From Escherichia coli (GTDB lineage Bacteria > Pseudomonadota > Gammaproteobacteria > Enterobacterales > Enterobacteriaceae): a stretch of DNA of 64,000 nucleotides. The notes below the pieces were generated by a model, which worked only from the letters and a program-made list of their open reading frames with translations, searched no databases and was not told where the DNA came from. Both the position numbers and the translations under genes were made by a program. The stretch lies in assembly GCF_009931435.1 (NCBI RefSeq), contig NZ_CP043414.1. One strand, 5' to 3'. This document shows positions 18,570 to 43,238 of the stretch, piece after piece; position 1 is the stretch's first letter; every line of letters starts with the position of its first letter.

Positions 18570-18637
18570 AAGTGCGGGTGCGTTGAGGATGCCTGACACA
18601 TCAGAGGTGGCGAGGGATTTCTCCCCCGCCAGGTCTC

Positions 18638-21143: not shown

Positions 21144-21147
21144 GATA

Positions 21148-22146: not shown

Positions 22147-22856
22147 AGATTATTCTCTCTATAAAAAATAACGAAAATTTTTCTGATTAGTTTTACCGCA
22201 TTTAGTTACAATAACCTAGCTATGTCAAGTCTGATGTTATCCTAAATTTCATTTTTGTTATATTATCCTCTAATTCTTAAGGCACACGTTTGAAAAGCGT
22301 CGACTTTCTCCTGTATGCTCTGAAGGTATCATTTACTCTGATTTTTCACGCAGTGTGCCGGATAGTTTTCTGTCAGGATAGAGCCCTAGATGACACGGAT
22401 GACCGCTGATGACCTGAATATGATCATGTCGCTAACATTCGCCATGGGTAATATTATTAGCCAATCCCGCCCCATCTGTTCATTCTGCTCCTGAATGCCC
22501 CCCCCCCGAAGTCAGCAGACTATGGCCTCGTTGCTGACATGCTCAGAGCCAACTCCTTACCCCCTTACGTAGAAGCAATCTCAGGCACCATTAGTGATTA
22601 CGGTAACCGAGCAGTTGTATTACACCGAACCGACTACCGCTATCATCAACACCTATCTTTGGGGCATAAAAGCGTGGCATAAAGGAAGCAACTAGGCAGT
22701 GATTATGTAAGTACATCTGTAAAACGGACCATCCATTTTAAATATCCTCTGATCCCCCTCAATATCCACCTCTAGCACAAAGCGGACAACCACGCTAGCT
22801 CTCCCCTGTACCATGAAAATTTCAATTCACATATGTATTAATGCTCTTTAGTCTCT

Positions 22857-23279
22857 TCACTTCAATAAATACTGAGAATCCCCCTGATAAAACGACAATA
22901 TGCGCTGCATAACTTCGCTTTTACGGCACTCACTACAAATTATATTATGATGCCTGTCGTAGCGACGTATTTCTCCATCAGGTAATGACCAGATAAGGTC
23001 CGGATCAACCGCAGATGGTTTCTTCAGCTTTGCCCTTGAGAGCTTTTTACGGGCATTTTGCCAGTCCTTACGCGCCTGTTCAGACGGGAATAACCCGTAA
23101 CCAGAGTTGTATACATCGCCACTGGCAACCAGCTCTCTGGCCAGAACGCTCATCAGATATCTTGTTGCCCCAGTTTTAGCTTCCAGTTGTCGTAACGTCT
23201 CTCGCCCGCTCTGGCGTACGAGATCAACAATCTGCCCTTTAATTTTTTCCCGCTCTTCCTGTGTAAATACTTTTGCCAT
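22857..23279 (-). CDS. Hypothetical protein (nin-region)
   Basis: ORF with start set at internal Met (MAKVFTQEE...); unrecognised. Confidence 0.35.
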   Translation of the reverse strand: MAKVFTQEEREKIKGQIVDLVRQSGRETLRQLEAKTGATRYLMSVLARELVASGDVYNSGYGLFPSEQARKDWQNARKKLSRAKLKKPSAVDPDLIWSLPDGEIRRYDRHHNIICSECRKSEVMQRILSFYQGDSQYLLK

Positions 23280-23295
23280 AAGCCCTCCCCTGGAA

Positions 23296-24114
23296 TCACT
23301 TTTCCGACACAATACGACTGGAGGAATCGACAATCTGTCGGACAATATCCCGGTGCTTGTTCAGCTCCCGCAGCGCGGCGCAGACTCGCTCCCACTTCTG
23401 GACATGACTTTTCGCCCGGCGAAGTTCGCGGCTTGCCATATGCAGCGATGGTAAAATCAGGCCATTCGCTCGCGTTTCGGTGAACGATGGCAACGACTGC
23501 ACAATGTCCCCCACAGTATCTGTTTTAATTTCTTCCTGTGTTGCCGCTTCCTGTACTGGTAACGCAACACCGGCTGACTGAGAAAAGGCTTTACCAGGTG
23601 TTTTCGCTACCGATACAACTTTCGGCTCTGCTGGTAAATTTTCCCCGGTTTCTTTTACCAGCATCCACTTACACCCCTTCCCCTGTCCCAGCTTAATCGC
23701 CATGCCATCGCGGCAAAGCTTTTCCATCGCAGAAACCAGCGACCTGACGCAATCAGCACGCCCCACAGCAATTGCAATCTCAGCGGTGGTCATTGCCCCA
23801 CTATGAGCAAGTGTGGACAGGATTTCGCAGCGTTTCAGTGGCTCACGCTCTTTTCTACTGACCACCGGATGGGATTTTCTTTCCACTTTACACACCGTTA
23901 CTTTTTTTTCTTTCACGCCCGTTTGTCGTTCTGAAACAGACCAGTAACCATTAACCGACACAACTTCTCCCAGCTCTTCGTACTCCCTCAGCATTTTAAT
24001 CGCCTCTGCAGGTTCAATGCCCAAACTGGCAGCAAGCTCGGTGCACGTCACCTTTTGCATCGCTTTTAACGTATCAATCAACGTTTCCATCAAAATTTCT
24101 CCCGTTAAAATCAT
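23296..24114 (-). CDS. Hypothetical early protein in the P/helicase-loader position (no Walker A; winged-helix-like repeats)
   Basis: 272-aa ORF downstream of the replication-initiator-like gene; no P-loop seen, so not DnaC-like. Confidence 0.35.
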   Translation of the reverse strand: MILTGEILMETLIDTLKAMQKVTCTELAASLGIEPAEAIKMLREYEELGEVVSVNGYWSVSERQTGVKEKKVTVCKVERKSHPVVSRKEREPLKRCEILSTLAHSGAMTTAEIAIAVGRADCVRSLVSAMEKLCRDGMAIKLGQGKGCKWMLVKETGENLPAEPKVVSVAKTPGKAFSQSAGVALPVQEAATQEEIKTDTVGDIVQSLPSFTETRANGLILPSLHMASRELRRAKSHVQKWERVCAALRELNKHRDIVRQIVDSSSRIVSEK

Positions 24115-24134
24115 TTACCAATCTCAAACCAAAC

Positions 24135-25097
24135 TTATCCCCTGAACCCTGGCGGAATTTCGGTGTCCGGTTCAGAAATATGATTCACACAACGCTGTAC
24201 AGGCGAACGCCCCAGACGGATAACCAGCTCATCCCATTTATCGCGAAGTTTTGACGGACTCATGATGTTTTTTACCCAGAATGGATCCCGCTGTACCCGA
24301 CCAAACATTTCGCAGATTTGTCTGTGAGTTCTGCCATCCAGCATCCGCATTATGCGCACGTCATTGGCCCATGCTGTCCAGTTGGGTTCTTTCGGTCGGG
24401 TGATCTCGCCATCATCGCTGGCGGCCTGTTCGTAAAGACTCACGATTCGCCCCCAGATCCACTGTGCGCATGCCAAATCCTCCTGATTTCCCCACTGACG
24501 TTTTTTTGCACTAAACACAATCGCATCAGGATGTCGGGTTAAAAAGTCCTGTTCAGCCGTCTGCGGGTCCGGTTGCGAAGCTTCCGGACGAAAAGATCTT
24601 TTATCTGACGGATCAGGTTTTAATACTGACGGATCGGGGCCAACCATCGCCCCCCTAACCGGCTGTTTTTTACAAACGGTTGATCCATCAAAATTTGACG
24701 GGTCAATCGTTGAGGGGGCAATATTTGACTGGTCAACTGTTAACGGGTCATTTTTTGCCGGGCTAATTTTTCTTTTCGGTTTATATGCCTCACGCGCCGC
24801 CTCAGCTGCTGCTTCGAGTTTTTCCACATTAAGGCGGTAGATATTGCTTTCATTACGCCCACCGACCTTACGCTCCTCCTTCGTCAGCCAGCCGTTCTTT
24901 TCCAGTTCCGCTATCGCCGCTTTAACCGTTGATTCACTCTTTGCCCCAATCTGACGACGAATGGTCTCCACTGCAGGCCATGACACACCTTCGTCATTGC
25001 TGTAGTCTGCAAGGCGAGCCATTACTGCCACCCTGGATAAGATCATGCCGGTGAAGGCGCACCCTTCCCAGACAAGACCATGAAGCTTGCTGCTCAT
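24135..25097 (-). CDS. Putative replication initiation protein (O-like position, N-terminal HTH/winged-helix)
   Basis: 320 aa; N-terminal ...LADYSNDEGVSWPAVETIRRQIGAKSESTVKAAIAELEKNGWL... resembles replisome-organiser HTH domains; position after the cro/cII-like genes. Confidence 0.5.
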   Translation of the reverse strand: MSSKLHGLVWEGCAFTGMILSRVAVMARLADYSNDEGVSWPAVETIRRQIGAKSESTVKAAIAELEKNGWLTKEERKVGGRNESNIYRLNVEKLEAAAEAAREAYKPKRKISPAKNDPLTVDQSNIAPSTIDPSNFDGSTVCKKQPVRGAMVGPDPSVLKPDPSDKRSFRPEASQPDPQTAEQDFLTRHPDAIVFSAKKRQWGNQEDLACAQWIWGRIVSLYEQAASDDGEITRPKEPNWTAWANDVRIMRMLDGRTHRQICEMFGRVQRDPFWVKNIMSPSKLRDKWDELVIRLGRSPVQRCVNHISEPDTEIPPGFRG

Positions 25098-25120
25098 AAA
25101 AAACCCCGAACACCGTGCTT

Positions 25121-25546
25121 TTAGTGCATCACCACAGCATTTCCTGCCGGGCCACCACGATTCATCTGATTGAAACCGGCGATTGCCACTGCGACAAAAT
25201 CATCAGCGTCTCTCACCAGTCGTTCCCGCGTCTCCACCAACTCCCGAAAATAGACTGAACTGTGGCTGCGCATCCGGGCCACCAGCAGAGGTGGCATTGC
25301 TTTTTCGATCGCTGGTAACAACGCCTGAATTTTTTCAACCGCATCAGTAGTGTCTTTCTCCACCCAGCGGAAAATTTTCTGGGTATTACGAGCCAGGGCT
25401 TCTGGATGGCTGTCGTCGTACAGTTCCGGGGACGTCATTCCCAGTTCGAAATAAGCCCTGGTTATCTTGGCCGCCGGAACTTTTTCACCATCCGGACGCG
25501 CCCAAGCATTCATAGCCATGCGGATGTGTTCATGCTTGATTTTCAT
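25121..25546 (-). CDS. ydaT: YdaT-like protein (Rac-type, CII-position)
   Basis: 141 aa starting MKIKHEHI..., as recalled for Rac YdaT; follows the cro-like gene. Confidence 0.55.
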   Translation of the reverse strand: MKIKHEHIRMAMNAWARPDGEKVPAAKITRAYFELGMTSPELYDDSHPEALARNTQKIFRWVEKDTTDAVEKIQALLPAIEKAMPPLLVARMRSHSSVYFRELVETRERLVRDADDFVAVAIAGFNQMNRGGPAGNAVVMH

Positions 25547-25770
25547 GAATCATTCTTTCCTTCGTTCAAGGTGTTATCCTTCTTTTTGTAAAGTTCTGGG
25601 TTCAAAGATAATTTTCCCTTGGAGTATGCGGCAGCTTCCGCGGCCCTCCCCTTGGGAACTATTTCACCAGGACGTTTGCGCCACATGTATATAGCTTCAC
25701 GGGTTATCCCATAAAAATCGGCAACTCTCTGAACAGAGCCAAAAAACTGGACAAGTTCATCAACTCGCAT
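25543..25770 (-). CDS. Cro/YdaS-like HTH regulator
   Basis: 75-aa ORF divergent from the CI-like repressor across an operator-containing spacer. Confidence 0.6.
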   Translation of the reverse strand: MRVDELVQFFGSVQRVADFYGITREAIYMWRKRPGEIVPKGRAAEAAAYSKGKLSLNPELYKKKDNTLNEGKNDS

Positions 25771-25779
25771 TTCACCCTC

Positions 25780-25830
25780 CTAAAACTAAGTATTTTTAGA
25801 TTAAAGGATAATTTTTTTTAGGTCAATGCA
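25780..25830. promoter_or_regulatory. Right operator/promoter region between cro-like and cI-like genes (palindromes built on CTAAAA/TTTTAG)
   Basis: CTAAAACTAAGTATTTTTAG and TTTTAGgtcaatgcaatCTAAAA in a 92-bp divergent intergenic spacer. Confidence 0.5.
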
Positions 25831-25862
25831 ATCTAAAATAATTTATATTCAATTCACGGGAG

Positions 25863-26513
25863 ATGATGATGGAAAGCCTTGGCATTAGGCTTAAGAGACT
25901 CAGAAAAGACAAGGGACTGACCCAAGTCGAACTGGGCAAGCTTTCTGGCGTAACAGGGGTAACTATAGGGTACTGGGAGAAAGACCTAAACGAACCCGGT
26001 AGCAAAGCTCTTAGTAAATTAGCCCAAGCACTAGGAACTACTGAGTCCTATCTCCTATATGGAGTATCGTCTACTGAACCTACCCTTGTGCAGAACAATT
26101 CAGGCACCCAAATCCCCTATCTTTCATGGGGGGAAGCAATTTCTTTCCTAATTTTAGAAGGAGAGAAAACTATGGGAAATGCCGACAGAATCACCACATT
26201 CTTTGACGTCAAGGAGGGGGATTTTGCCGTTTCAATGCCTGATGACACTATGCACAACCCATCAGGGTCGCCAAGCATTCCGGTTGGTGCCACAGTGATC
26301 ATGAGGCCTAGAGAAAAATATAAAAATGGTAGTATCGTCGCTGTAATAGTCCCAGATCCGCTTACAAACGAACCATCTATGACTATAAAAAAATTAGTCA
26401 TCGACGGAAAACTCGTGTATTTAAGCCCCCTCAATCCTCGCTATCAATCGTCCTTACTGACACCTGAATGTAAAATTGTTGCTGTAGCAAAAGGTGTGCA
26501 GTTCAGCCTATAG
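25863..26513 (+). CDS. cI: CI-like repressor (N-terminal HTH plus C-terminal S24 LexA-like autopeptidase domain)
   Basis: 216 aa; LTQVELGKLSGVTGVTIGYWEK (HTH) and C-terminal VIMRP...GSIVAVIV...KKLVIDGKLVYLSPLNP; divergent from the cro-like gene. Confidence 0.85.
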   Translation: MMMESLGIRLKRLRKDKGLTQVELGKLSGVTGVTIGYWEKDLNEPGSKALSKLAQALGTTESYLLYGVSSTEPTLVQNNSGTQIPYLSWGEAISFLILEGEKTMGNADRITTFFDVKEGDFAVSMPDDTMHNPSGSPSIPVGATVIMRPREKYKNGSIVAVIVPDPLTNEPSMTIKKLVIDGKLVYLSPLNPRYQSSLLTPECKIVAVAKGVQFSL

Positions 26514-26536
26514 CTTCCACTTTGTTTTTCAATCAG

Positions 26537-26560
26537 AGGTCGGCTTTGTCGACCTTTTTT
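26537..26560 (+). terminator. Rho-independent terminator after cI-like gene (aggtcg...cgacct plus T6)
   Basis: Inverted repeat followed by TTTTTT. Confidence 0.55.
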
Positions 26561-26577
26561 AAATATATCTAGATCAC

Positions 26578-26611
26578 ACTTGACTATAAAACTAAATAGA
26601 TTTAGTTTTAT
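26578..26611 (+). promoter_or_regulatory. Putative left operator/promoter (pL/oL-like): -35 TTGACT overlapping the palindrome ATAAAACTAAAT-AG-ATTTAGTTTTAT
   Basis: 12-bp perfect inverted arms sharing the TAAAACTAA half-site with the right operator. Confidence 0.5.
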
Positions 26612-26786
26612 GGTATACCACCTCACCCCGCCCCACAGAACGCAGGGCAATACTTCGAGTTACCAGGCAGTGGTCAGGGGTTAAGTAGCCAGCCCGAGGC
26701 GTAAGAACATGACGGCAGGGTTCAACTTTAACTATGCAGCAGGTTTTTGTTCCGCTCCCCCGGCGTTAAGGGGAAATGAGGTCAAC

Positions 26787-26939
26787 ATGGATACTATCGA
26801 TCTTGGCAACAGTGAATCTCTGGTATGCGGCGTGTTTCCCAACCAGGACGGTACGTTCACCGCGATAACGTATACCAAAAGCAAAACGTTTAAAACCGAA
26901 ACTGGCGCGCATCGCTGGTTAGCCAGAAACACTGACTGA
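26787..26939 (+). CDS. Small early-left protein (hypothetical)
   Basis: ATG preceded by GAGG RBS (MDTIDLGNSESLV...); first ORF after the putative pL. Confidence 0.3.
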   Translation: MDTIDLGNSESLVCGVFPNQDGTFTAITYTKSKTFKTETGAHRWLARNTD

Positions 26940-26950
26940 TGAGGTTGACT

Positions 26951-27340
26951 ATGGAATTTAAAGAGTTACCAAAAGAAATCCAAGAAATTGCAGCACATAC
27001 ACTTCGTCAACGTCTGAACGAAGTTGCATTAGAAGCTGAAACGAAAAAAGACATTGATAATATGGCTCGTAATGTGCGCGATGCGTTTACCGGACTGTAT
27101 TCTGTTTCTGTTGAGGACAATAACATTCCTGACGAACAGGAAGAGAGTACAGACCCCCACAAATTCTGGAAATCTGTAGAGGTCATTGCAAAAGCCAAAC
27201 TACTGGAACTTAACAACTTATATCATCGTGAGAATGATGGTCGTCAATCTTTGCATCATCAGGGAGTCGCCACCCTGATAGCTCTAACGAAAGAGCAAGG
27301 CGAATATCATCCAGTGGCATTAAACGACACTGTGAAATAG
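26951..27340 (+). CDS. Hypothetical early-left protein
   Basis: 130-aa acidic ORF; unrecognised. Overlapped by a minus-strand ORF (27210-27587) that I consider less likely. Confidence 0.35.
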   Translation: MEFKELPKEIQEIAAHTLRQRLNEVALEAETKKDIDNMARNVRDAFTGLYSVSVEDNNIPDEQEESTDPHKFWKSVEVIAKAKLLELNNLYHRENDGRQSLHHQGVATLIALTKEQGEYHPVALNDTVK

Positions 27341-27906
27341 TCCATCCATGTTTACGGGATAGATAAAGATATATCGCTTCGAAACCATCGACATGGTTTG
27401 GATAGCCTTCCTCAGCAGCAAGGTTATCCCCAAAACATTCAAGAATATAATTTAAACGCGCTGTTTCATAATGAATCTTCCAGCGAGTCTGATTTAGTTT
27501 GCTGACCATTTTAATTTTATCCTCCATTGAGGTTACTGGTTGAGAATGGAGACCACACGTGACAGCGCGTGGTCGTGCGCCGGACACGGATAAGAATCCG
27601 GCACAAACAGTTTACTGAAAGGATATATCCCTGAAAAGTCAGGGCATAACGCGAAAGCGCACGGCGAAGTCATTCCTCCCTTTGTTGTGTACCACTGACA
27701 TCTTCGTCTGTGCGCTTCCGGTTGTGGCAATCCGCGAAATGGCGCGGCGGTAAGTATGGCGGGGTTATTCCTTCCCCGTTGAGGACACCGGGTTGTCAGG
27801 TTGACCATACGCTTAAGTGACAACCCCGCTGCAACAACCCATGTTGATTACCTTTTGGCGGGTATCCGTTTTTTGTTTTCCCTTGTGATACCCGCCCTTT
27901 TTAAAG

Positions 27907-28068
27907 TGAATTTTGTGATGCGGTGAATGCGGCTCAGCGCACGCGGAACAGTTAAAAAGGCCAGTTGACTTCCGTATTGGTTCTTATGGGTGGGTTCTCT
28001 GTATCCGGCGTTAATTATTAACTGGTTAACGTCACCTGGAGGCACCAGGCACCGCATCACAAAATTCA
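27907..28068. repeat. 19-bp perfect inverted repeat pair (TGAATTTTGTGATGCGGTG / CACCGCATCACAAAATTCA) flanking ~125 bp
   Basis: Arms at 27907-27925 and 28050-28068, read directly; the right arm ends ~18 bp before the next ORF start. Confidence 0.6.
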
Positions 28069-28085
28069 TTGTTGAGGATGCGATA

Positions 28086-28268
28086 ATGGAAACGTTATTA
28101 CCAAACGTCAATACGTCTGAAGGTTGTTTTGAAATTGGTGTCAGAATCAGTAACCCTGTATTTACTGAAGATGCCATTAATAAGAGAAAACACGAACGGG
28201 AGCTATTAAATCAAATATGCATTGTTTCAATGCTGGCCCGTTTACGCCTGATGCAAAAAGGACGATGA
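28086..28268 (+). CDS. Small hypothetical early protein
   Basis: METLLPNVNTSEGCFEIG...; 60 aa. Confidence 0.3.
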   Translation: METLLPNVNTSEGCFEIGVRISNPVFTEDAINKRKHERELLNQICIVSMLARLRLMQKGR

Positions 28269-28474
28269 CAATGAATACAGTATTTGCACTCGTTCTGACG
28301 GTTTTTCTTAATACAGGCGAGCCAGTCGATCTTGTTATTGGTATACATGACTCAATGAAAGAATGCATGGCTGCCGCAGCGGAACAGAAAATTCCCGGCA
28401 ACTGTTATCCGGTTGATAAAGTTATTCGCATGGACAATAACGAAATCCCGGCAGGACTTAAAACAGCGCCGTAA
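28265..28474 (+). CDS. Small hypothetical protein with hydrophobic N-terminus (possible secreted/membrane)
   Basis: MTMNTVFALVLTVFLNTGEP...; RBS-like AAGGA upstream. Confidence 0.35.
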   Translation: MTMNTVFALVLTVFLNTGEPVDLVIGIHDSMKECMAAAAEQKIPGNCYPVDKVIRMDNNEIPAGLKTAP

Positions 28475-28554
28475 TTAATATCCGGTTTCATTTTTATATG
28501 CCAGCAATGGCAGGGATTTGTTCACCCTTAAATCTGTAATGAGGTTAAAACAAA

Positions 28555-31026
28555 ATGAGTAAAGTCTTTATTTGCGCCGCCATTCCGGACGAACAGGCAA
28601 TAAAGGAAGAAGGTGCAGTCGCTGTAGCCACTGCCATTGAAGCCGGCGACGAACGCCGCGCCCGAGCCAAATTTACCTGGCAATTCCTGGAGCAATATCC
28701 GGCTGCTCAGGACTGCGCTTATAAATTTCTTGTTTGCGAGGATAAACCCGGCATGCCCCGCCCTGCCATCGACTCCTGGGATACCGAATATATGCAGGAA
28801 AACTGCTGGGATGAGGAATCCGCTTCCTTTATTCCGGTCGAACCAGAATCCGATCCGATGAACGTCAATTTTGACAAGCTGTCCCCTGAAGTACAGAACG
28901 CGGTCCTGGTTAAGTTCGACACATGTGAAAACATCACCGTTGATATGGTTATTAGCGCACAGGAATTGTTGCAGGAAGACATGGCAACATTCGACGGACA
29001 TATCGTTGAAGCGTTGATGAAAATGCCAGAAGTTAACGCCATGTATCCGGAGCTTAAGTTGCACGCCATTGGGTGGGTTAAGCATAAATGTATTCCTGGT
29101 GCTAAATGGCCCGAAATTCAGGCAGAGATGCGCATCTGGAAAAAACGTCGCGAAGGTGAACGCAAGGAAACCGGAAAATACACGTCTGTTGTTGATCTCG
29201 CCCGCGCCAGAGCCAATCAACAGTACACTGACAATTCAACAGGAAAAATCAGCCCGGTCATTGCTGCCACTCATCGCGAATACAAGCAGACATGGAAAAC
29301 ACTGGATGACGAACTGGCCTACGCTCTCTGGCCTGGTGATGTGGATGCCGGAAACATTGACGGCAGCATCCATCGCTGGGCAAAAAATGAAGTTATCGAC
29401 AACGACCGCGAAGACTGGAAGCGTATCTCGGCATCAATGCGCAAACAGCCTGATGCCCTTCGCTACGACCGCCAGACTATTTTTGGCCTTGTCCGTGAAC
29501 GTCCGATCGACATTCACAAAGACCCTGTGGCACTGAACAAATACATTACTGAATACCTGACTACAAAGGGCGTGTTTGAAGATGAAGGAAGAAATCAGAG
29601 CGCAACTGATACTCTCTCGTCACCAGTACCAGAAACTGATGCAGTGGAAACGGCAATTCCGGACAACGAAAAAACCGAATGCAAAGTGGAAGTCGAACCA
29701 TCTGTAGAGCGTGAGGGGCCGTTCTACTTCCTCTTCACCGACAAGGATGGCGAAAAATATGGTCGCGCAAACAAACTTTCTGGTCTGAATAAGGCGCTGA
29801 CTGCAGGGGCTACTGAAATCACGAAAGAAGAATATTTTGCCCGTAAAAACGGTACATACTCAGGTTCACAACAAAATACTGGTGCATCTGACACGACCGC
29901 ACAACCAGAGCCGGTAAAAGTTACCGCTGACGAAGTAAACAAAATTATGCAGGCAGCCAATATCACCCAGCCTGACGCCGATAAGTTGCTTGCTGTATCA
30001 CGTGGTGAATTTGTTGAAGGGATTAGCGACCCGAATGATCCGAAATGGGTGAAGGGGATTGAAACCCGCGATTCAGTGAATCAGAACCAGCAAGAAACGG
30101 AACAGAACGACCAGAAAGCGGAACAAAACAGCCCAAATGCGTTACAAAACGAGCCAGAAACGAAACAACCTGAGCCAGTAGCGCAACAGGAAGCGGAAAA
30201 AGTCTGCACCGCCTGCGGTCAGACCGGCGGCGGCAACTGCCCTGATTGTGGTGCGGTGATGGGCGACGCAACATACCAAGAAACATTCGATGACAAGAAC
30301 CAGGTTGAAGTTCAGGAAGACGATTCGGAGAAAATGGAAGGCGCTGAACATCCACACAAAGAGAATGCTGGCAGCGCTCAGGATCACGCCAGCGATAGTG
30401 AAACTGGCGAGACGGCAGATCCCTTAATTACGGTGAACGGTCATCACGTTATCACATCCACCAGCAGGACGTGTGACCATCTAATGATCGACCTTGAAAC
30501 CATGGGAAAAAATCCTGATGCCCCGATTATCTCAATAGGTGCAATATTTTTCGATCCGCAAACCGGAGATATGGGACCGGAATTTAGTAAGACTATCGAT
30601 CTGGAAACTGCTGGCGGAGTCATTGATCGGGACACCATTAAATGGTGGCTTAAACAATCACGCGAAGCGCAATCTGCCATTATGACCGATGAAATCCCGT
30701 TAGATGATGCACTGTTACAATTGCGGGAATTTATCGACGAAAACTCCGGTGAATTTTTTGTTCAGGTCTGGGGAAATGGAGCCAACTTCGACAACACGAT
30801 TTTGCGCCGTTCATACGAACGGCAGGGGATCCCCTGCCCGTGGCGTTACTACAACGATCGCGATGTACGCACAATCGTTGAGCTGGGGAAAGCCATAGAC
30901 TTCGATGCCAGAACGGCTATTCCATTCGAAGGTGAGCGCCATAATGCACTTGATGACGCCCGTTACCAGGCAAAATACGTTTCAGCAATCTGGCAAAAAC
31001 TGATCCCGAATCCGGTTGATTTTTAA
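28555..31026 (+). CDS. Large prophage exonuclease: RecE-like N-terminal/central region fused to a C-terminal DEDDh (DnaQ-like) 3'-5' exonuclease domain
   Basis: 823 aa; central DADKLLAVSRGEFVEGISDPNDPKWVKGIETRD resembles recalled Rac RecE; C-terminal motifs MIDLETMG, NGANFD, HNALDDARY = DEDDh exo I-III; Cys cluster CTACGQ...CPDCG. Confidence 0.65.
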   Translation: MSKVFICAAIPDEQAIKEEGAVAVATAIEAGDERRARAKFTWQFLEQYPAAQDCAYKFLVCEDKPGMPRPAIDSWDTEYMQENCWDEESASFIPVEPESDPMNVNFDKLSPEVQNAVLVKFDTCENITVDMVISAQELLQEDMATFDGHIVEALMKMPEVNAMYPELKLHAIGWVKHKCIPGAKWPEIQAEMRIWKKRREGERKETGKYTSVVDLARARANQQYTDNSTGKISPVIAATHREYKQTWKTLDDELAYALWPGDVDAGNIDGSIHRWAKNEVIDNDREDWKRISASMRKQPDALRYDRQTIFGLVRERPIDIHKDPVALNKYITEYLTTKGVFEDEGRNQSATDTLSSPVPETDAVETAIPDNEKTECKVEVEPSVEREGPFYFLFTDKDGEKYGRANKLSGLNKALTAGATEITKEEYFARKNGTYSGSQQNTGASDTTAQPEPVKVTADEVNKIMQAANITQPDADKLLAVSRGEFVEGISDPNDPKWVKGIETRDSVNQNQQETEQNDQKAEQNSPNALQNEPETKQPEPVAQQEAEKVCTACGQTGGGNCPDCGAVMGDATYQETFDDKNQVEVQEDDSEKMEGAEHPHKENAGSAQDHASDSETGETADPLITVNGHHVITSTSRTCDHLMIDLETMGKNPDAPIISIGAIFFDPQTGDMGPEFSKTIDLETAGGVIDRDTIKWWLKQSREAQSAIMTDEIPLDDALLQLREFIDENSGEFFVQVWGNGANFDNTILRRSYERQGIPCPWRYYNDRDVRTIVELGKAIDFDARTAIPFEGERHNALDDARYQAKYVSAIWQKLIPNPVDF

Positions 31027-31092
31027 TGTTCAACCCTGATCGCCGTCCCCGAATTATATTGGCGGCGGTCATGCTGTAAGGCACGTGACCAC

Positions 31093-31344
31093 ATGTACGA
31101 ATTAACTCTATCGCCAGCAGAGATTCAAGAGATCACGAAATACGAGCGATACACAAAACAGCAACACCAGTTAAGGCTGCACGGTATCCCATTTGTAATC
31201 GGTCCTAAAAACGAACCAATAGTTCTTCGCAGGGATATTCCACACGGACTGACTACGATGCCAAAAGCACCTGAACTGGTTTCCGCTGAACCCGATTTTG
31301 AGGCGCTGAACAATGGGAAGACCAAGAAAAAACAAAAAAGATAA
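31093..31344 (+). CDS. xis: Putative excisionase/recombination directionality factor (by position and size)
   Basis: 83-aa basic ORF immediately upstream of, and overlapping, int. Confidence 0.45.
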   Translation: MYELTLSPAEIQEITKYERYTKQQHQLRLHGIPFVIGPKNEPIVLRRDIPHGLTTMPKAPELVSAEPDFEALNNGKTKKKQKR

Positions 31345-32332
31345 TGCACTACCACCGCGTGTTAGATCGAATGGTTACAGTTACGTATGGAAACCCAAAG
31401 GAAGCACAAGAACTATAGGGCTCGGAAGAGTGCGGGAAACCAGCGTAGCTAAAGTCTGGCAAAATTATGAGCTGGAAAAAGCAAAACTCCACAACATAAT
31501 GACAGTAGCTAAATTATGGCACATGTTTATGGACTCCCCTGCATTTACAGAACTGGCCCCCCGAACCCAAAAAGATTATCGGCAACATCAAAGGGCATTG
31601 TTGGCAGTATTCGGAAAAGTGCTTGCTGATAATGTAAAAATTGAACAGGTAAGAATTTTCATGGATAAGCGAGGACTTGAGAGCAAGACCCAAGCAAACC
31701 ATGAACTGGCAAGTCTGAGCCGTGTATACGGATGGGGATATGAGCGTGGGTATGTGAAAAATAATCCATGCAAAGGAGTCAGAAAATTCACACTTAAAGC
31801 CCGTACTGTTTACATCACCGATGAACAGTATGCTGCAATATATGCGGAAGCAATTCCACAGTTACGTATTGCAATGGAGATATCCTATCTTTGTGCGGCA
31901 AGGCTCGGTGATGTACTCGAGCTGAAATGGCAGGATATTATGGAGAAAGGGATTTACATTGAGCAAAACAAGACCGGCACTAAACAAATCAAGGAATGGT
32001 CTCCGCGATTACGTACGGCGATCCAGTTAGCCCGAAATGTATCTTCCGGCACATGCGAGTATGTGATCAACACAACCAAAGGCGGGAAGGTAATAGCCAA
32101 GACGCTGAACAACTGGTGGAATCAGGCTAAACGTGCAGCCGAGCAAAAAGCCGGCGTTCCGTTTGGGTGCAACTTCCATGACATAAAAGCCAAAGGGATT
32201 TCAGATTACGAAGGCAGCAGTCGCGACAAACAAATTTTCAGTGGACACAAAACAGAAAATCAGGTGTTGATTTACGATCGTAAAACCAAAATAACACCAA
32301 CACTGGATTTGCCGCTTGTGGTCAGTAAGTAG
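31313..32332 (+). CDS. int: Tyrosine site-specific integrase
   Basis: 339 aa; C-terminal catalytic region with R...HDIKAKG...GHKTENQVLIYDR (H-x-x-R and Tyr nucleophile context); adjacent to the att/tRNA fragment. Confidence 0.9.
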   Translation: MGRPRKNKKDNALPPRVRSNGYSYVWKPKGSTRTIGLGRVRETSVAKVWQNYELEKAKLHNIMTVAKLWHMFMDSPAFTELAPRTQKDYRQHQRALLAVFGKVLADNVKIEQVRIFMDKRGLESKTQANHELASLSRVYGWGYERGYVKNNPCKGVRKFTLKARTVYITDEQYAAIYAEAIPQLRIAMEISYLCAARLGDVLELKWQDIMEKGIYIEQNKTGTKQIKEWSPRLRTAIQLARNVSSGTCEYVINTTKGGKVIAKTLNNWWNQAKRAAEQKAGVPFGCNFHDIKAKGISDYEGSSRDKQIFSGHKTENQVLIYDRKTKITPTLDLPLVVSK

Positions 32333-32473
32333 GCAATACAGAAAATTTTCTGGCAAAAAGACTTGGTATATTAACTCTGAATAACTCCCTAATATATTGA
32401 TTTTTCTTGGTGTCAAGTCTGATTAACTTTTCGGCCATTTTCCGTATTATACTGATTTTTCTTTATTTTTCTT

Positions 32474-32533
32474 CGGTCTTGAAAACCGGCGACCCGAAAG
32501 GGTTCCAGAGTTCGAATCTCTGCGCTTCCGCCA
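32474..32533 (+). tRNA. serT: Partial tRNA-Ser(UGA): 3' 60 nt of serT (anticodon arm to CCA), prophage attachment-site core at the junction with host DNA
   Basis: CGGTCTTGAAAACCGGCGACCCGAAAGGGTTCCAGAGTTCGAATCTCTGCGCTTCCGCCA matches the recalled 3' portion of E. coli serT; the 5' ~28 nt are absent, replaced by phage DNA. Confidence 0.8.
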
Positions 32534-32541
32534 AATAAGAT

Positions 32542-32576
32542 AAGGGGTTAGCTAAATGCTAACCCCTTTTTCTTTT
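32542..32576 (+). terminator. Native serT rho-independent terminator
   Basis: AAGGGGTTAGC-taaat-GCTAACCCCTT followed by a T-rich run. Confidence 0.65.
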
Positions 32577-32739: not shown

Positions 32740-33399
32740 ATGGATCGTATTGTTAGTTCTTCACATGACCGTACATCGCTGCTTAGCACCCATAAGGTGC
32801 TGCGTAATACCTATTTTCTGCTGAGCCTGACGCTGGCCTTTTCGGCGATTACCGCAACTGCCAGTACGGTGCTGATGCTGCCATCTCCGGGTCTGATTCT
32901 GACGCTGGTGGGTATGTATGGTTTGATGTTCCTGACCTATAAAACGGCGAATAAGCCGACCGGAATTATCTCCGCATTCGCCTTTACCGGTTTTCTGGGT
33001 TATATCCTCGGACCAATTCTGAATACCTATCTGTCTGCCGGAATGGGTGACGTAATCGCTATGGCACTGGGTGGAACGGCGTTAGTGTTCTTCTGCTGCT
33101 CTGCGTATGTGCTGACCACCCGCAAAGATATGTCGTTCCTTGGCGGTATGCTGATGGCGGGTATTGTGGTGGTGCTGATTGGTATGGTTGCTAATATCTT
33201 CCTGCAGCTGCCTGCCCTGCATCTGGCGATCAGCGCGGTCTTCATTCTGATCTCCTCTGGCGCTATCTTGTTTGAAACCAGCAACATCATTCATGGCGGT
33301 GAAACGAACTATATTCGTGCCACGGTTAGCCTGTATGTTTCGCTGTACAACATCTTCGTCAGCCTGCTGAGCATTCTGGGCTTCGCCAGCCGCGATTAA
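32740..33399 (+). CDS. yccA: Inner-membrane FtsH modulator YccA (BAX inhibitor-1 family)
   Basis: 219 aa, 7-TM profile, matches recalled YccA; conserved K-12 neighbourhood. Confidence 0.95.
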
Positions 33400-33489
33400 T
33401 CTCACCCGCTAACACTTTCATAGCCTCGCTTTATGCGGGGCTTTGTTTTTTGTTACACTGCCGCCAGTCTGATTAAGGTAGTAATAATT

Positions 33490-33819
33490 ATGCTGATCTT
33501 CGAAGGTAAAGAGATAGAAACGGATACCGAAGGCTATCTCAAAGAAAGCAGCCAGTGGAGTGAGCCGCTGGCAGTGGTGATTGCAGAGAACGAAGGGATT
33601 ACTCTGTCACCAGAACACTGGGAAGTGGTGCGTTTTGTGCGTGATTTCTATCTGGAATTCAATACTTCTCCGGCGATTCGTATGCTGGTAAAAGCGATGG
33701 CGAATAAATTTGGCGAAGAAAAAGGTAACAGCCGCTATTTATACCGACTGTTTCCGAAAGGTCCGGCTAAGCAAGCCACCAAAATTGCTGGCCTGCCAAA
33801 ACCGGTAAAATGTATTTAA
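33490..33819 (+). CDS. tusE: Sulfur relay protein TusE
   Basis: [30 protein letters not shown]...; 109 aa from the internal Met of the ORF. Confidence 0.9.
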
Positions 33820-34094
33820 TGGATACGAAAATCGGTTAATTCCCCCGAGGGATGATGCGGCTCGCTGAGCACCCGTTCTACACGCGCAGAACGCGGGCCG
33901 CCACTCTTTAACCACTGCATTAATTTTTCTACCTGCCCTTCTTCACCGCAGGCAACCACTTCCACGCTGCCATCGTCAAGATTTTTGGCGTACCCGGCTA
34001 ATCCCAGCTTTTTCGCTTCATACTGCGTGGTATAGCGAAATCCAACGCCCTGAACTCGCCCGTAAACCCAGGCAATTATGCAGACTTTCGACAT
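33816..34094 (-). CDS. yccX: Acylphosphatase
   Basis: [32 protein letters not shown]... (92 aa). Confidence 0.9.
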
Positions 34095-34188
34095 TGCTGC
34101 TCTCCTTATCCTTAATGGACGCGTTGCAAATCCATGGAAAACTCCGGACAATGACGCCCATTTCTTTGCATCGACAGAAAAGTAAATT

Positions 34189-35379
34189 ATGAGTGTACGT
34201 TTAGTGTTAGCCAAAGGGCGCGAAAAATCATTACTTCGTCGCCATCCGTGGGTCTTTTCCGGGGCCGTTGCCCGCATGGAAGGTAAAGCCAACCTCGGTG
34301 AAACCATCGATATTGTTGATCATCAGGGAAAATGGTTAGCACGCGGCGCTTATTCGCCAGCTTCGCAAATCCGGGCGCGCGTCTGGACGTTTGACCCGAA
34401 TGAATCTATCGACATTGCTTTTTTTACCCGCCGTTTGCAACAAGCACAAAAATGGCGTGACTGGCTGGCGCAAAAAGATGGCCTCGACAGTTATCGTTTA
34501 ATCGCCGGTGAATCTGATGGCCTGCCGGGAATTACTATCGATCGTTTCGGTAATTTTCTGGTGCTGCAGCTGCTAAGCGCTGGCGCGGAATACCAGCGTG
34601 CGGCATTAATTAGTGCCCTGCAAACGCTCTACCCGGAATGTGCAATTTACGATCGCAGCGACGTTGCGGTACGTAAAAAAGAAGGGATGGAACTGACCCA
34701 GGGCCCCGTTACCGGAGAGCTACCGCCTGCCCTGCTGCCGATTGAAGAACACGGCATGAAGCTGCTGGTGGACATACAGCACGGGCACAAAACGGGCTAC
34801 TACCTGGACCAGCGTGACAGCCGCCTGGCTACCCGCCGCTACGTTGAAAATAAACGCGTACTTAACTGTTTCTCCTATACCGGTGGTTTCGCCGTATCGG
34901 CATTGATGGGCGGTTGTAGCCAGGTTGTCAGCGTTGATACCTCCCAGGAAGCGCTGGATATTGCACGGCAGAATGTTGAGCTGAACAAACTGGATCTGAG
35001 CAAGGCTGAGTTTGTCCGTGATGATGTCTTTAAATTGCTGCGTACTTATCGCGATCGCGGTGAAAAATTTGACGTTATCGTGATGGACCCACCGAAGTTT
35101 GTTGAGAATAAAAGCCAGTTGATGGGCGCGTGTCGTGGCTATAAAGACATCAACATGCTGGCGATTCAGTTGCTGAATGAAGGCGGAGTTCTCCTGACTT
35201 TCTCCTGTTCCGGTCTGATGACCAGCGATTTATTTCAGAAAATCATCGCGGATGCCGCAATTGATGCCGGTCGTGATGTACAATTTATAGAGCAGTTCCG
35301 TCAGGCAGCCGATCATCCGGTGATCGCTACCTACCCGGAAGGGCTATATCTGAAAGGGTTTGCCTGTCGCGTCATGTAA
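34189..35379 (+). CDS. rlmI: 23S rRNA m5C1962 methyltransferase RlmI
   Basis: 396-aa ORF with PUA plus SAM-MTase architecture, matching RlmI/YccW. Confidence 0.95.
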
Positions 35380-35754
<375 letters not shown>

Positions 35755-35798
35755 TCCCTGAACAAATCCCCGGAAGGTTTTGGCCTTCCGGGGATTTT

Positions 35799-36212
35799 TT
35801 ATTTGGCCAGGCCCAGGCGAGGGATCTCAATAGCCGGGCAGCGATCCATCACCACATTTAACCCGGCATCCCGTGCCAGTACTGCCGCTTGCTCATTAAT
35901 CACCCCCAGTTGCATCCAGAGGGTTTTCGCGCCAATGGCGATCGCTTCCTGCGCCACGCCCCACGCCGCTTCTGAATTACGGAAAACATCGACCATATCG
36001 ACTTTTTCCGGAACTTCTGCCAGCGTGCCATACCCCTGCTGGCCCAGCAGCGTTTTGCCGGCAACTTTTGGTGAAACCGGAATGACGTGATACCCCTGGT
36101 CGAGTAGATATTTCATCACGCGATAGCTGGGACGATCGGGTTTGTCGCTTGCCCCCACCAGCGCAATGGTATGAGTGGACGTTAAAATGCCTGCAATATC
36201 GGTTTCTTTCAT
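35799..36212 (-). CDS. yccU: CoA-binding protein YccU
   Basis: [32 protein letters not shown]...; 137 aa. Confidence 0.9.
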
Positions 36213-36384
36213 TATTTCCTCCAGACTGTTTAACAAAGTGTACGACAAAGCCGACATGCCAACCATGCAGCTAATACGAATGAATGAGAGCAAAAGCGGG
36301 AATTATGTCTATATGTTAGTAAGTATGATTAAAGAAAAATTTTGACACATTATTATTCGGGCGGTCTTTTGACAGGAGCTACCT

Positions 36385-37047
36385 ATGAAAACCGGCATCG
36401 TGACCACCTTGATTGCATTATGTTTGCCGGTATCCGTTTTTGCCACCACGCTGCGGCTTTCAACCGATGTCGATCTTCTGGTACTCGACGGCAAGAAGGT
36501 TTCCAGCTCTCTGCTGCGCGGTGCGGACAGCATTGAACTGGATAATGGACCACATCAGTTAGTGTTTCGCGTTGAGAAGACGATTCATCTTTCCAATAGT
36601 GAAGAACGGCTGTATATCTCCCCACCACTAGTGGTCAGTTTTAATACCCAGCTCATCAACCAGGTCAATTTTCGCCTGCCTCGCCTGGAGAATGAGCGGG
36701 AAGCTAACCATTTTGATGCCGCGCCGCGCCTTGAATTGTTGGATGGCGATGCGACGCCGATTCCGGTAAAGCTGGATATTCTCGCCATTACCTCAACGGC
36801 AAAAACGATTGATTATGAGGTCGAGGTTGAACGCTATAACAAATCCGCGAAACGCGCTTCACTACCGCAATTTGCCACGATGATGGCAGATGACAGTACG
36901 CTGCTTTCGGGTGTTTCCGAGCTGGATGCTATTCCACCGCAGTCTCAGGTGCTCACAGAACAACGGCTGAAGTATTGGTTTAAACTGGCTGACCCACAAA
37001 CGCGAAATACTTTTCTGCAATGGGCGGAAAAACAACCATCTTCCTGA
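36385..37047 (+). CDS. yccT: Periplasmic protein YccT (signal peptide present)
   Basis: 220 aa, N-terminal signal sequence; conserved position. Confidence 0.9.
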
Positions 37048-37142
37048 GATTTTTGTGCCTGTGCGCAGGCTTTTTCGGTCTTTCTCTTGCAGCGATAAGT
37101 GCTTACAGTAATCTGTAGGAAAGTTAACTACGGATGTACATT

Positions 37143-37601
37143 ATGGAACTGACGACACGTACTTTACCTGCGCGGAAACATATTGCGCTGGTGGCACACG
37201 ATCACTGCAAACAAATGCTGATGAGCTGGGTGGAACGGCATCAACCGTTACTGGAACAACACGTACTGTATGCAACAGGCACTACCGGTAACTTAATTTC
37301 CCGCGCGACCGGCATGAACGTCAACGCGATGTTGAGTGGCCCAATGGGGGGGGACCAGCAGGTTGGCGCATTGATCTCAGAAGGTAAAATTGATGTATTG
37401 ATTTTCTTCTGGGACCCACTAAATGCCGTGCCGCACGATCCTGACGTGAAAGCCTTGCTGCGTCTGGCGACGGTATGGAACATTCCGGTTGCCACCAACG
37501 TGGCAACGGCAGACTTCATTATCCAGTCACCGCATTTCAACGACGCGGTCGATATTCTGATCCCCGATTATCAGCGTTATCTCGCGGACCGTCTGAAGTA
37601 A
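37143..37601 (+). CDS. mgsA: Methylglyoxal synthase
   Basis: [24 protein letters not shown]...; 152 aa. Confidence 0.95.
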
Positions 37602-37632
37602 TATTACACAGGTGGCAAACGCCACCTGTTTC

Positions 37633-39687
37633 CTACGGTTTTCTCGCCACCGGCACATCCAGATTTTTCAGTATTTCGACAAAGGGAGAGGGATTCTCTT
37701 TGTTAAACAATGCCCATACCCGATGGCGTGCCCGGGTCAGCGCCACGTACATTAACCGCCGTTCTTCAGCGTCCGGAAAATCCTCAACCGGGGGTAGTAG
37801 CGCCTCTTCCATAATCGACTCCCGCGCCGCAGCCGGAAAACCATCACTCCCCTCCTGCAAGCCAACGATGATGACGTAATCCGCCTGTTGCCCTTTGCTG
37901 GCATGAATGGTCATAAAATCGATTTGCAACTTCGGCCAGCGTGTTGCCGCTTTTTCCAGGCTGGCAGGCCTCATGTGATGGTAACGCGCCAGGATCAGAA
38001 TGCGCTCTTCCGGTTTGGCATAACCAGAGAGCTTATCCAGCAAAGCATCAAGTTGACTCTCATCCAATAACGTGACGGCTTTTTTGTCTCCATTGGTTAA
38101 GCTGTTTAGCGGCTTTTTCAGCTGGCCAGGGTTCTGCTGAATAAAACGGTTTGCCACCTCACCGATACGACTGTTAAAACGGTAAGTCGTGTCTAAATCA
38201 CAGCGATCGCCTTCACCAAAGTTTTCATGGAAAGCGGTGGTGAGCGACATTTGCGCACCGCTGAAACGGTAAATCGCCTGCCAGTCATCGCCAACGGCGA
38301 ACAACGTCGTTTGACTGTTTTGCTTGCGTAATGCCGCTAACAACGCTGCACGCTGCGGCGAGATATCCTGAAATTCATCAACCAGAATATGCTTCCACGG
38401 GCTGATAAAGCGACCTTTCTCCAGAATCACAATCGCCTGGTGAATAAGGCCGGAAAAATCGACAGCGTTTTCTGCCTTCAGCGCACCTTTCCAGGCTTTT
38501 AATAACGGGGCCATCAACTTGATACGTTTACTGAACAAGTCGCGAATCTCTTCAGGTGCATTGGCAATCATTTCTGCCTGTGCACCGCCGTGCATTCGCA
38601 TCAGACTTACCCAGCGATCGAGGCGAGAAGCAAGACGATGCTGTAATTTCTCATCATCCCAGAAGTTACCTTCTGGCACTGACCACTGCATTTCTTCCGT
38701 CAGCCATTGCCGCCAGCCCTTCGCCTGCGCTTTCTTTTCGCTGCATTGCTTACGCCACTCAGCAATAAAGAGTTCATGACGGGCAGCGGTATCATTTTCT
38801 AGTTTGCTGACTGTCGGAACTTTTTTGCTGCCCTGCTGAATAATATGCAGCGCCAGCGCATGAAATGTGCGTGCGGTAATGTCTTCGGTATGTAGTCGTT
38901 CTCGGATACGCTCGTCCATCTCTTCAGCTGCTTTGCGACCAAACGCCAGCAATAAAATTTGCTCAGGGGACGCTTCACCACGCGCCAGCAACCAGCCTGC
39001 ACGGGCCACCAGCACCGACGTTTTTCCGCTTCCTGCACCGGCCAGCACTAACAGAGAATGCTCGCCGTTAACGACTGCCCGGGCCTGCGCCGGATTCAGC
39101 GGTGAAGACTCAACCTGACGGAAAAAATCCACATACTCGGTAAGCATAGCTTCGGTATACGCCTGATTATGCTGCAACCGAGCGCCTTCAATATCTTTTA
39201 ACCAGGCCTGACATTTACGCCACGCCTCACGGCAGTTATCGAATTCTTCCAGTCGGTTGACCGGCAACGGCAACGCCAACAAAGCCTGGCGGATTTGTTG
39301 CTGCACGCCAGAAGTTTGCTCACGCGTCAGCCATTTATTTTCTCCGGTGCGCGTGGCAATCAAATCCAGTTGCTGGCGTAAAACACCAGCCGCAATTTCG
39401 CTCATCTCAGCACTCCACCGCCGCCAGTGAGCATCAAGATGATGGTAAAAACGCTGCGTCTCGCCCCATTCGGTGCCGTGCAGACGCACCACTTTTTCGT
39501 CCGGCAGTACAAATTCCAGCTCGCCCCATACCAGACCGCGCTTACAGTGAATTGCCAGTAATTGATTGAAAGGAATAAGGTATTCGTGGCGATCGCCGGA
39601 GACTTTAATCCCGGCATTGAGGATCACCGCCCGATCGTAAGGGTGCTGTGCCAGACGTTTTCCAAGCGTTGTCGCTTTCAGTTCCAT
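37633..39687 (-). CDS. helD: DNA helicase IV
   Basis: UvrD-like motifs (GxGKT Walker A etc.); 684 aa from MELKATTLGKRL.... Confidence 0.95.
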   Translation of the reverse strand: MELKATTLGKRLAQHPYDRAVILNAGIKVSGDRHEYLIPFNQLLAIHCKRGLVWGELEFVLPDEKVVRLHGTEWGETQRFYHHLDAHWRRWSAEMSEIAAGVLRQQLDLIATRTGENKWLTREQTSGVQQQIRQALLALPLPVNRLEEFDNCREAWRKCQAWLKDIEGARLQHNQAYTEAMLTEYVDFFRQVESSPLNPAQARAVVNGEHSLLVLAGAGSGKTSVLVARAGWLLARGEASPEQILLLAFGRKAAEEMDERIRERLHTEDITARTFHALALHIIQQGSKKVPTVSKLENDTAARHELFIAEWRKQCSEKKAQAKGWRQWLTEEMQWSVPEGNFWDDEKLQHRLASRLDRWVSLMRMHGGAQAEMIANAPEEIRDLFSKRIKLMAPLLKAWKGALKAENAVDFSGLIHQAIVILEKGRFISPWKHILVDEFQDISPQRAALLAALRKQNSQTTLFAVGDDWQAIYRFSGAQMSLTTAFHENFGEGDRCDLDTTYRFNSRIGEVANRFIQQNPGQLKKPLNSLTNGDKKAVTLLDESQLDALLDKLSGYAKPEERILILARYHHMRPASLEKAATRWPKLQIDFMTIHASKGQQADYVIIVGLQEGSDGFPAAARESIMEEALLPPVEDFPDAEERRLMYVALTRARHRVWALFNKENPSPFVEILKNLDVPVARKP

Positions 39688-39809
39688 GACTCTGTAGATC
39701 CACACGAAATGATTTCTTATCAGTGTAACCGTCAGAGAAAACGTGCTCCAGCCCAAAAAAACGTTACAATTGCCGCCCATTACTGAAAACCACAGTAAAG
39801 CGAGGTTTT

Positions 39810-40256
39810 ATGCGTACCGTTTTGAACATTCTGAACTTTGTGCTTGGCGGATTTGCCACCACTCTGGGCTGGCTGTTGGCGACTCTGGTCAGTATTGTGC
39901 TAATTTTTACCTTACCGCTGACACGATCCTGCTGGGAGATCACTAAACTGTCTCTGGTGCCTTATGGCAATGAAGCTATTCATGTCGATGAACTGAACCC
40001 GGCTGGCAAAAATGTGCTGCTGAATACTGGCGGTACGGTATTGAATATTTTCTGGCTGATTTTCTTTGGCTGGTGGTTATGCCTGATGCACATTGCAACG
40101 GGCATCGCACAATGTATTTCCATCATTGGCATTCCTGTCGGCATTGCGAACTTTAAAATTGCCGCTATTGCACTATGGCCGGTCGGTCGTCGCGTGGTAT
40201 CGGTAGAAACAGCGCAAGCTGCGCGTGAAGCCAATGCACGTCGTCGTTTTGAATAA
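39810..40256 (+). CDS. yccF: Inner membrane protein YccF
   Basis: 148 aa, hydrophobic; conserved position. Confidence 0.9.
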   Translation: MRTVLNILNFVLGGFATTLGWLLATLVSIVLIFTLPLTRSCWEITKLSLVPYGNEAIHVDELNPAGKNVLLNTGGTVLNIFWLIFFGWWLCLMHIATGIAQCISIIGIPVGIANFKIAAIALWPVGRRVVSVETAQAAREANARRRFE

Positions 40257-40265
40257 TCCACTAAT

Positions 40266-43020: not shown

Positions 43021-43196
43021 AAAATTCCTTTTAAAATCATAACATAAAAGAATTATTCACATTAACGGATCCGTTAACTACGAAAATAGGCAACTTATTC
43101 TTAAGGGGCAAGATTAATTTATGTTTTCCCGTCACTAACGACAAAATTTGCGAGGCTCTTTCCGAAAATAGGGTTGATCTTTGTCGTCACTGGATG

Positions 43197-43216
43197 TACT
43201 GTACATCCATACAGTA
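43197..43216 (+). promoter_or_regulatory. LexA box (SOS operator) of sulA
   Basis: TACTGTACATCCATACAGTA fits CTGT-N8-ACAG, ~22 bp upstream of the sulA ATG. Confidence 0.85.
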
Positions 43217-43238
43217 ACTCACAGGGGCTGGATTGATT

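Follow-up and report, generated by a model that had tools for sequence, protein, structure and literature searches.

Evidence that a lambda-like prophage is integrated site-specifically into serT of Escherichia coli

Introduction

In a 64,000-nt stretch of Escherichia coli DNA (contig NZ_CP043414.1; hereafter the window, with position 1 as its first letter and the (+) and (-) strands as read), a 60-nt piece of the tRNA-Ser gene serT lies between a phage integrase gene, int, and the chromosomal gene yccA. How did part of a tRNA gene come to stand, without its 5′ part, at the edge of phage DNA? The answer, which we hold with high confidence, is that this region is the int-proximal junction of a lambda-like prophage that entered serT by Campbell-type site-specific integration, through the mechanism proposed below. 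The arrangement at serT is ordinary, textbook and already published, being that of an Sp4/CP-933M-type integration module. The significance of assigning the module in the window to the Sp4/CP-933M/Evi type lies mainly in annotation: the right-hand prophage boundary is set at 32473, or at 32538 if the duplicated block is counted; and the junction accounts for a tRNA scan that finds nothing at the serT fragment. In the 5′-to-3′ sense of the tRNA, this junction is attR; the lambda convention would name it attL.

A displaced serT fragment at the edge of the prophage

The fragment, CGGTCTTGAAAACCGGCGACCCGAAAGGGTTCCAGAGTTCGAATCTCTGCGCTTCCGCCA, occupies 32474..32533 (+). It is identical at 60 of 60 positions to E. 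coli K-12 serT (tRNA-Ser, anticodon UGA), starting at tRNA position 28 (base 2 on the 5′ side of the anticodon stem) and ending with the terminal CCA. A search of the window for this 60-mer (CGGTCTTGAAAACCGG...GCTTCCGCCA) gave a single hit, at those coordinates and without mismatches, whereas 100 shuffles gave none. Immediately downstream lies the native rho-independent terminator of serT (32542..32576, (+)), in which a hairpin with an 11-bp stem (32542..32568) is followed by a T-run; it is identical to that of K-12. The first chromosomal gene is yccA (32740..33399, (+); Pfam Bax1-I, E=1.7e-47), annotated in relatives as the FtsH protease modulator YccA. Over the 150 nt 3′ of the fragment, identity to the K-12 sequence downstream of serT is 99.3%. 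Upstream, int (31313..32332) and further phage DNA fill the window from position 1 to 32473. A first-pass annotation of this DNA had described a 60-nt 3′ duplicate of a tRNA-Ser beside an integrase, running from the anticodon stem to CCA and followed by the native terminator and yccA, with phage DNA and int on its upstream side; each of these elements is borne out.

The remainder of the gene is missing. The first 28 nt of serT were sought in the whole window, allowing up to 3 mismatches, and were absent, as that annotation had stated. A second copy of the 60-mer was likewise absent from the 64 kb. ARAGORN reported no tRNA over this length, and Rfam at the gathering threshold matched only sok, the pyrD leader and naRNA4. 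Thus the observation named beforehand as contrary evidence, an intact tRNA-Ser overlapping the fragment, was looked for with both programs, and no intact tRNA was found in the 64 kb. Since the window contains neither a second 60-mer nor the 5′ part of serT, the other prophage end is not in the window, and the earlier placement of that end outside it agrees with a prophage that occupies all of 1..32473.

Recombined arms around a common block

If the fragment was left by site-specific integration, four attachment (att) sites should be recognizable, and all four are available. The unoccupied site, attB, is found in K-12 as hyaA-serT-terminator-yccA (type B-O-B′). The phage site, attP, lies downstream of int in the coliphage Evi and comprises the int-proximal arm of the window, the common block and a distal arm (P-O-P′). 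In SOI121, EC556 and O157:H7 Sakai, attL is represented by an intact serT beside hyaA (B-O-P′). The junction in the window supplies attR (P-O-B′).

In a scripted comparison of these sites, the block O shared by any two sites of different type was exactly 65 bp. By pairwise extension it corresponds to 32474..32538 (+), that is, the 60 nt of tRNA plus AATAA; the identity continues for 5 nt beyond CCA, refining the earlier figure of 60 to 65 bp. The two ends of the Sakai prophage already disagree at the base that follows CCA, so exact identity there covers 60 bp. The flanking arms are 96.5-100% identical within a site type (int-proximal arm, window versus Evi, 96.5%; distal arm, SOI121 versus Evi, 98.8%; B arm, K-12 versus SOI121, 100%; B′ arm, K-12 versus window, 99.3%) and unrelated between types. 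Arms recombined as B-O-B′, P-O-P′, B-O-P′ and P-O-B′ are the hallmark of Campbell integration. All four att sequences are direct observations, as is the homology of Int and Xis described below. The comparison supports the first-pass proposal that the prophage/chromosome junction arose by site-specific integration into serT.

The same comparison bears on a different origin for the fragment, namely that an unrelated insertion or deletion truncated serT and left a tRNA pseudogene, with no part played by site-specific recombination. The lack of an intact tRNA in the window would fit such an event. Against it, the same block and int-proximal arm are present as attP in a free phage genome, that of Evi; and hundreds of genomes share one and the same breakpoint, which lies no more than 1 nt from that in the attP of Stenotrophomonas phage vB_SmeS_BUCT708, whose integrase is 54% identical to the one in the window. 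Furthermore, E. coli has no gene for tRNA-Ser(UGA) other than serT, so that loss of serT would not be tolerated. A truncated pseudogene is effectively refuted by the four-site comparison, and its probability is negligible.

The length of the block had been remarked upon as long for an att core. This remark confuses the identity block with the crossover core, and the block length is in fact ordinary for an anticodon-centred site. At such a site the block necessarily covers everything in the tRNA gene from its anticodon stem onwards. Ordinary tRNAs need about 45 nt for this; class II tRNA-Ser, on account of its long variable arm, needs about 60 nt, so a block of that size is not unusual. Anticodon-centred (class A) tRNA-gene integration sites were reportedly catalogued by Williams in 2002. 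Here, the block has C28 as its first base, 4 nt ahead of the anticodon loop, and covers the rest of the gene as far as its 3′ end, which fits the anticodon-loop sublocation class. In the Islander survey, anticodon-centred sites are the commonest class, at 2083 of 3919 islands (PMC4383910). Class A sites in tRNA-gene DNA share with the present case a displaced 3′ fragment at one end, a regenerated gene (predicted, in the present case) at the other, and an integrase inside the element (PMC4383910). There is no difference of substance; the block exceeds those of class I tRNAs only through the long variable arm of tRNA-Ser.

The integrase and the excisionase-like protein

Integration of this type calls for a recombinase, and int (31313..32332, (+)) encodes a lambda-Int-type tyrosine recombinase of 339 amino acids (aa), as judged from Pfam PF00589, PHROG integrase families and alignment with lambda Int. 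Residues 1-318 align with residues 1-339 of lambda Int (PDB), including the N-terminal arm-binding region, and the alignment begins at residue 1 of both proteins (MGRPRKN.. / MGRRRSH..). The lambda catalytic positions R212, K235, H308, R311 (Arg-II), H333 and Y342 correspond to R197, K220, H289, K292, H312 and Y321. A family alignment was assembled from the query and 116 full-length matches (representatives at no more than 50% identity) from a search of 1.84 billion representative proteins. In it, R197, K220, H289, H312 and Y321 are conserved in 111-117 of the 117 sequences.

Three points weigh against integration as we describe it. One is the lysine at the canonical Arg-II position (K292; codon 32186..32188; motif FHDIKAKGIS), where the R-H-R triad calls for arginine. 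Another is that all sites agree across the whole block, which keeps sequence comparison from locating the crossover point. The last is that the window does not reach the far end of the prophage, so that the intact serT expected there is extrapolated from SOI121, EC556 and Sakai.

The lysine is a clade trait and not a sign of inactivation, since it is the majority state in the family and a lysine-bearing integrase is active. Among the 117 aligned sequences, query included, this position carries Lys in 89, Arg in 27 and Gly in 1, within a region conserved as FHD[IL]KAKG[IV]S. The integrase Pal_Y-Int_1, with Lys at Arg-II, integrates DNA experimentally (PMC12884075). A dead integrase, considered on account of the substitution, was rejected on the majority of Lys in the family and on the presence of the same module in a plaque-isolated phage.

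The 3′ end of a preceding gene (31093..31344, (+)) overlaps the start of int. Its 83-aa product is excisionase-like: it matches Pfam DUF4224 (E=1.8e-9) and PHROG phrog_1266 'excisionase' (E=6.5e-23), and its equivalent in Sakai Sp4 is annotated as a phage excisionase. The DUF4224 protein is the probable excisionase for the reverse reaction. Both int and xis are full length, matching the lengths annotated in relatives.

Attachment-site anatomy and a proposed mechanism

The int gene is 141 nt from the identity block. The intervening int-proximal arm of the phage (32333..32473, (+)) is 96.5% identical to the corresponding arm of Evi attP, is conserved in Sakai Sp4, and is unrelated to the K-12 sequence upstream of the block. 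It contains a putative arm-type integrase-binding site, ACTTGGTATA, at 32361..32370 (+). In Evi attP this repeat family has 4 copies, 1 int-proximal and 3 tandem in the distal arm, with a spacing of 11-12 bp; the int-distal arm with three tandem ACTTGGTATA copies is seen in Evi, SOI121 and Sakai. The pattern CTTGGTATA occurs once in the 64-kb window, at 32361..32370, and 26 of 100 shuffles gave at least one match, such that the single copy is not significant alone. A degenerate second repeat of this putative arm type, TCTTGGTGTCAA (32405..32416, (+); repeat D5 in Evi attP), is kept between the window and Sakai Sp4 despite differences around it. BUCT708, whose integrase is 54% identical, shows CTTAGAATA-type repeats at the equivalent place, three of them in tandem. 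Repeats that differ with the integrase are expected of arm-type sites co-evolving with the N-terminal domain of Int, to which the repeats would bind.

The arm also contains a match to the integration host factor (IHF) consensus, WATCAANNNNTTR, at 32390..32402 (-), a putative IHF site. In 7.4 kb of Evi there are only two matches to WATCAANNNNTTR, both within attP: one in the int-proximal arm, the other at the border between the block and the distal arm. These matches may function in IHF binding. The att anatomy recorded here (block, arm repeats and IHF-like sites) is usable for developing the integrase as a serT-targeting tool.

Within the block, the sequence reads CGGT / CTTGAAA / ACCG, a 7-nt spacer within an inverted repeat, which is the core geometry of tyrosine recombinases. 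The spacer CTTGAAA (32478..32484, (+)) is the anticodon loop and is proposed as the 7-bp strand-exchange region. The BUCT708 attP block begins 1 nt later than the one in the window, at G29, 3 nt before the anticodon loop. This constraint on the left block boundary, beside the loop, argues for strand exchange in the loop. Strand exchange most probably takes place across the 7-nt anticodon loop. On the other side of the block, the distal arm starts with a hairpin and T-run, AAGGGGTTACCAAATGGTAGCCCCTT, which resembles the native serT terminator and replaces it at attL.

Taken together, these features suggest the following course of integration. The attP copy of serT, which starts in the anticodon stem, ends 5 nt past CCA and is followed by the phage terminator hairpin, would recombine with the chromosomal serT. 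The reaction would be carried out by the lambda-Int-type tyrosine integrase using core-type sites on the anticodon stem, assisted by the arm-type sites (the ACTTGGTATA repeats) and by IHF-like bends. At the far prophage end, the outcome would be an intact, phage-completed serT with the phage terminator; at the int end, the chromosomal 3′ part would persist as a 60-nt stretch without function, with int on one side and the native terminator and yccA on the other. In the reverse reaction, excision, the DUF4224 protein would act. As serT is the sole gene for its tRNA, regeneration of the gene is obligatory, a need that accounts for the complete 3′ part on the phage.

Two additional roles, separate from each other, are highly improbable. 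In one, the tRNA 3′ half and the hairpin, which lie in the 3′ untranslated path of int, would act as a processing or retroregulation signal for its mRNA, similar to lambda sib; the sole ground for it is geometry. If it were true, the signal would differ between the free phage, where it would be the hairpin AAGGGGTTACCAAATGGTAGCCCCTT, and the prophage, where it would be the native serT terminator. In the other, catalysis would be modified in the clade with Lys for Arg-II, for which the sole ground is the conserved substitution.

The far end of the prophage

The element between position 1 and 32473 was recognized as a lambdoid prophage from the list of open reading frames (ORFs), synteny with the annotated SOI121 prophage, Pfam, and the Rfam match to sok. 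Its genes include those for head-tail joining, capsid, protease, portal, terminase, lysis, a methyltransferase, Q and RusA, together with hok/sok, replication, a CI-like repressor (helix-turn-helix and S24), dicB-region genes, an exonuclease, xis and int. The exonuclease is the 823-aa ORF before xis and is common among lambdoid prophages. No tail genes are present among the window ORFs; they are outside the window, and the other prophage end must therefore lie to the left of position 1. Both the tail genes and the serT-bearing end are placed beyond position 1.

What lies there can be read from relatives among 5426 complete RefSeq E. coli genomes, Shigella excluded. The junction (window 31000-33400, over at least 80% of its length) is present in 742 of these 5426 genomes, and the best identities were 99.4% for the junction, 99.0% for the prophage and 99.2% for the chromosomal flank (33400..45400, the tusE to ompA region), values that would fit a source strain from a thinly sampled lineage or from Shigella. 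The closest prophage is that of SOI121, with 98.1-99.7% identity over window positions 1-17670, 18551-23288 and 26621-33400 and mosaic replacement between them. Reading on from hyaA, SOI121 has an intact 88-nt tRNA-Ser, next the tail-fibre assembly and tail genes, and then the segment equivalent to the window; its serT carries the same block, followed by phage DNA. The two block copies are separated by 45,834 bp, and the equivalent of window position 1 is 14,574 bp from the serT copy. EC556 also has an intact serT at the far end, and Sakai carries 'prophage Sp4, lambda-like phage' from an int-fragment-yccA junction to an intact serT beside hyaA. In the window's own genome, an intact, phage-completed serT is predicted about 14-15 kb beyond the left edge, beside hyaA. 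The 65-bp block there would be followed by the TCAAGGGGTTACC... arm, and the end of serT itself by AATAATCAAGGGGTTACC..., with three TTGGTATA repeats.

The far end might instead abut a second element, in a tandem array at serT, with the intact gene beyond that element and a further 3′ fragment between the two. Regenerated tRNA sites are reusable, with 125 islands in tandem arrays of at least two in Islander (PMC4383910), and the 2.4-kb junction query finds as many as 4 matching places in some E. coli genomes. The median, however, is one such match per genome, and SOI121, EC556 and Sakai each have a single element between serT and the fragment, making a tandem arrangement here very unlikely.

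The relatives also raise the matter of the prophage's present state. With the same origin, the prophage might by now be fixed and defective, the junction being a fossil and not a working attR. Decayed relatives at serT are frequent, as in EC556, where a 20.4-kb remnant with many pseudogenes lies between the same two repeats. In the window itself, at 19641..22146 (-), an 834-aa ORF, unbroken in SOI121, falls into two because one extra A near 21161 shifts the frame; either this is a genuine pseudogene or the homopolymer was misread in sequencing. On the other side, int and xis are full length and the elements of the attR arm are conserved. The ORFs for head, terminase, lysis, Q, replication and the CI-like repressor are open, and they are syntenic with the 45.8-kb SOI121 prophage. 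A fossil junction is thus unlikely, if less so than the alternatives above, and the prophage that we place at serT by site-specific integration may be competent for excision today, judging from these reading frames. The two pieces of the split ORF are 332 aa and 500 aa long and have no confident Pfam family; the 332-aa piece has a below-threshold match to HSDR_N_2.

Relationship to known systems

The nearest described counterpart is Sp4 of O157:H7 Sakai, equivalent to CP-933M of EDL933. Like the element in the window, it is a lambda-like prophage between yccA and serT. Its integrase, ECs_1055, is 97% identical (328/339) to that in the window; the order xis-int-fragment-terminator-yccA, the 60-nt fragment and the int-proximal arm are all kept; and on the attL side an intact serT is followed by a distal arm of the same type, beside hyaA. 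The remainder differs in being mosaic, with the structural and regulatory genes of the window closest to those of the SOI121 prophage. Published descriptions place Sp4 between yccA and tRNA-Ser(tga) (PMC8190617) and CP-933M between yccK and tRNA-SerT (PMC5552260).

Escherichia phage Evi (LR597642) is a coliphage from (infant) faecal samples (PMC10910852). Its xis-int module has 96.3% DNA identity to that of the window, and its attP joins the int-proximal arm of the window, the 65-bp block and the distal arm of the lysogen attL. It differs in being a non-integrated phage genome with other head and tail genes (an HK97-type capsid module). Permutation of the Evi record brings int, att and the tail-fibre genes together in one continuous stretch. 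In both Evi (L004 4546..4728) and Sakai Sp4 (L010 1102..1284), the int-distal arm is followed by a short fragment of the effector gene espV, and in Sakai tccP2 is near this fragment; type III effector cargo adjoins attP in the Sp4/Evi phage group.

With lambda itself, the likeness extends to an integrase homologous over its full length, arm-binding N-terminal domain included; to a complex attP that combines IHF-consensus sites with arm-type repeats, of which one arm has 1-2 and the other has 3 in tandem; and to a small excisionase gene that overlaps an int transcribed towards att. The differences are the tRNA-gene target; the block, 65 bp here and 15 bp in lambda; the Lys for Arg-II in Int; the DUF4224 family of the Xis; and the position of the three tandem arm repeats, which are int-distal here, whereas lambda P′1-3 are int-proximal.

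A more distant version of the module is found in BUCT708 (OM816834; L007 2501..3887) and also in BUCT709, both recorded as Stenotrophomonas phages, which encode the 54%-identical integrase with a DUF4224 Xis. Their 59-nt block is identical to enterobacterial serT, which is unexpected for a Stenotrophomonas host. In these phages int flanks attP from the opposite side, where it converges with the tRNA piece and adjoins the three CTTAGAATA-type repeats.

Other features of the window

The segments at 17671..18550, near hok/sok, and 23289..26620, covering replication and immunity, are not shared with the SOI121 prophage, with the exception of 420 bp at 25132..25551 that are 92.9% identical. Such differences are typical lambdoid mosaicism. 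A 216-aa repressor with helix-turn-helix and S24 domains is encoded at 25863..26513, within the second of these segments. The sok antitoxin RNA (Rfam, 105 bits) is located at 18788..18962 (-), near the position of a hokD-type toxin gene annotated in the SOI121 prophage. Together, the sok match and the hokD position indicate a putative type I toxin-antitoxin locus on the prophage. In the chromosomal part of the window, Rfam places a PyrD leader at 59251..59324 (-) and naRNA4 at 63774..63852 (-), both of which are expected E. coli features unrelated to the junction.

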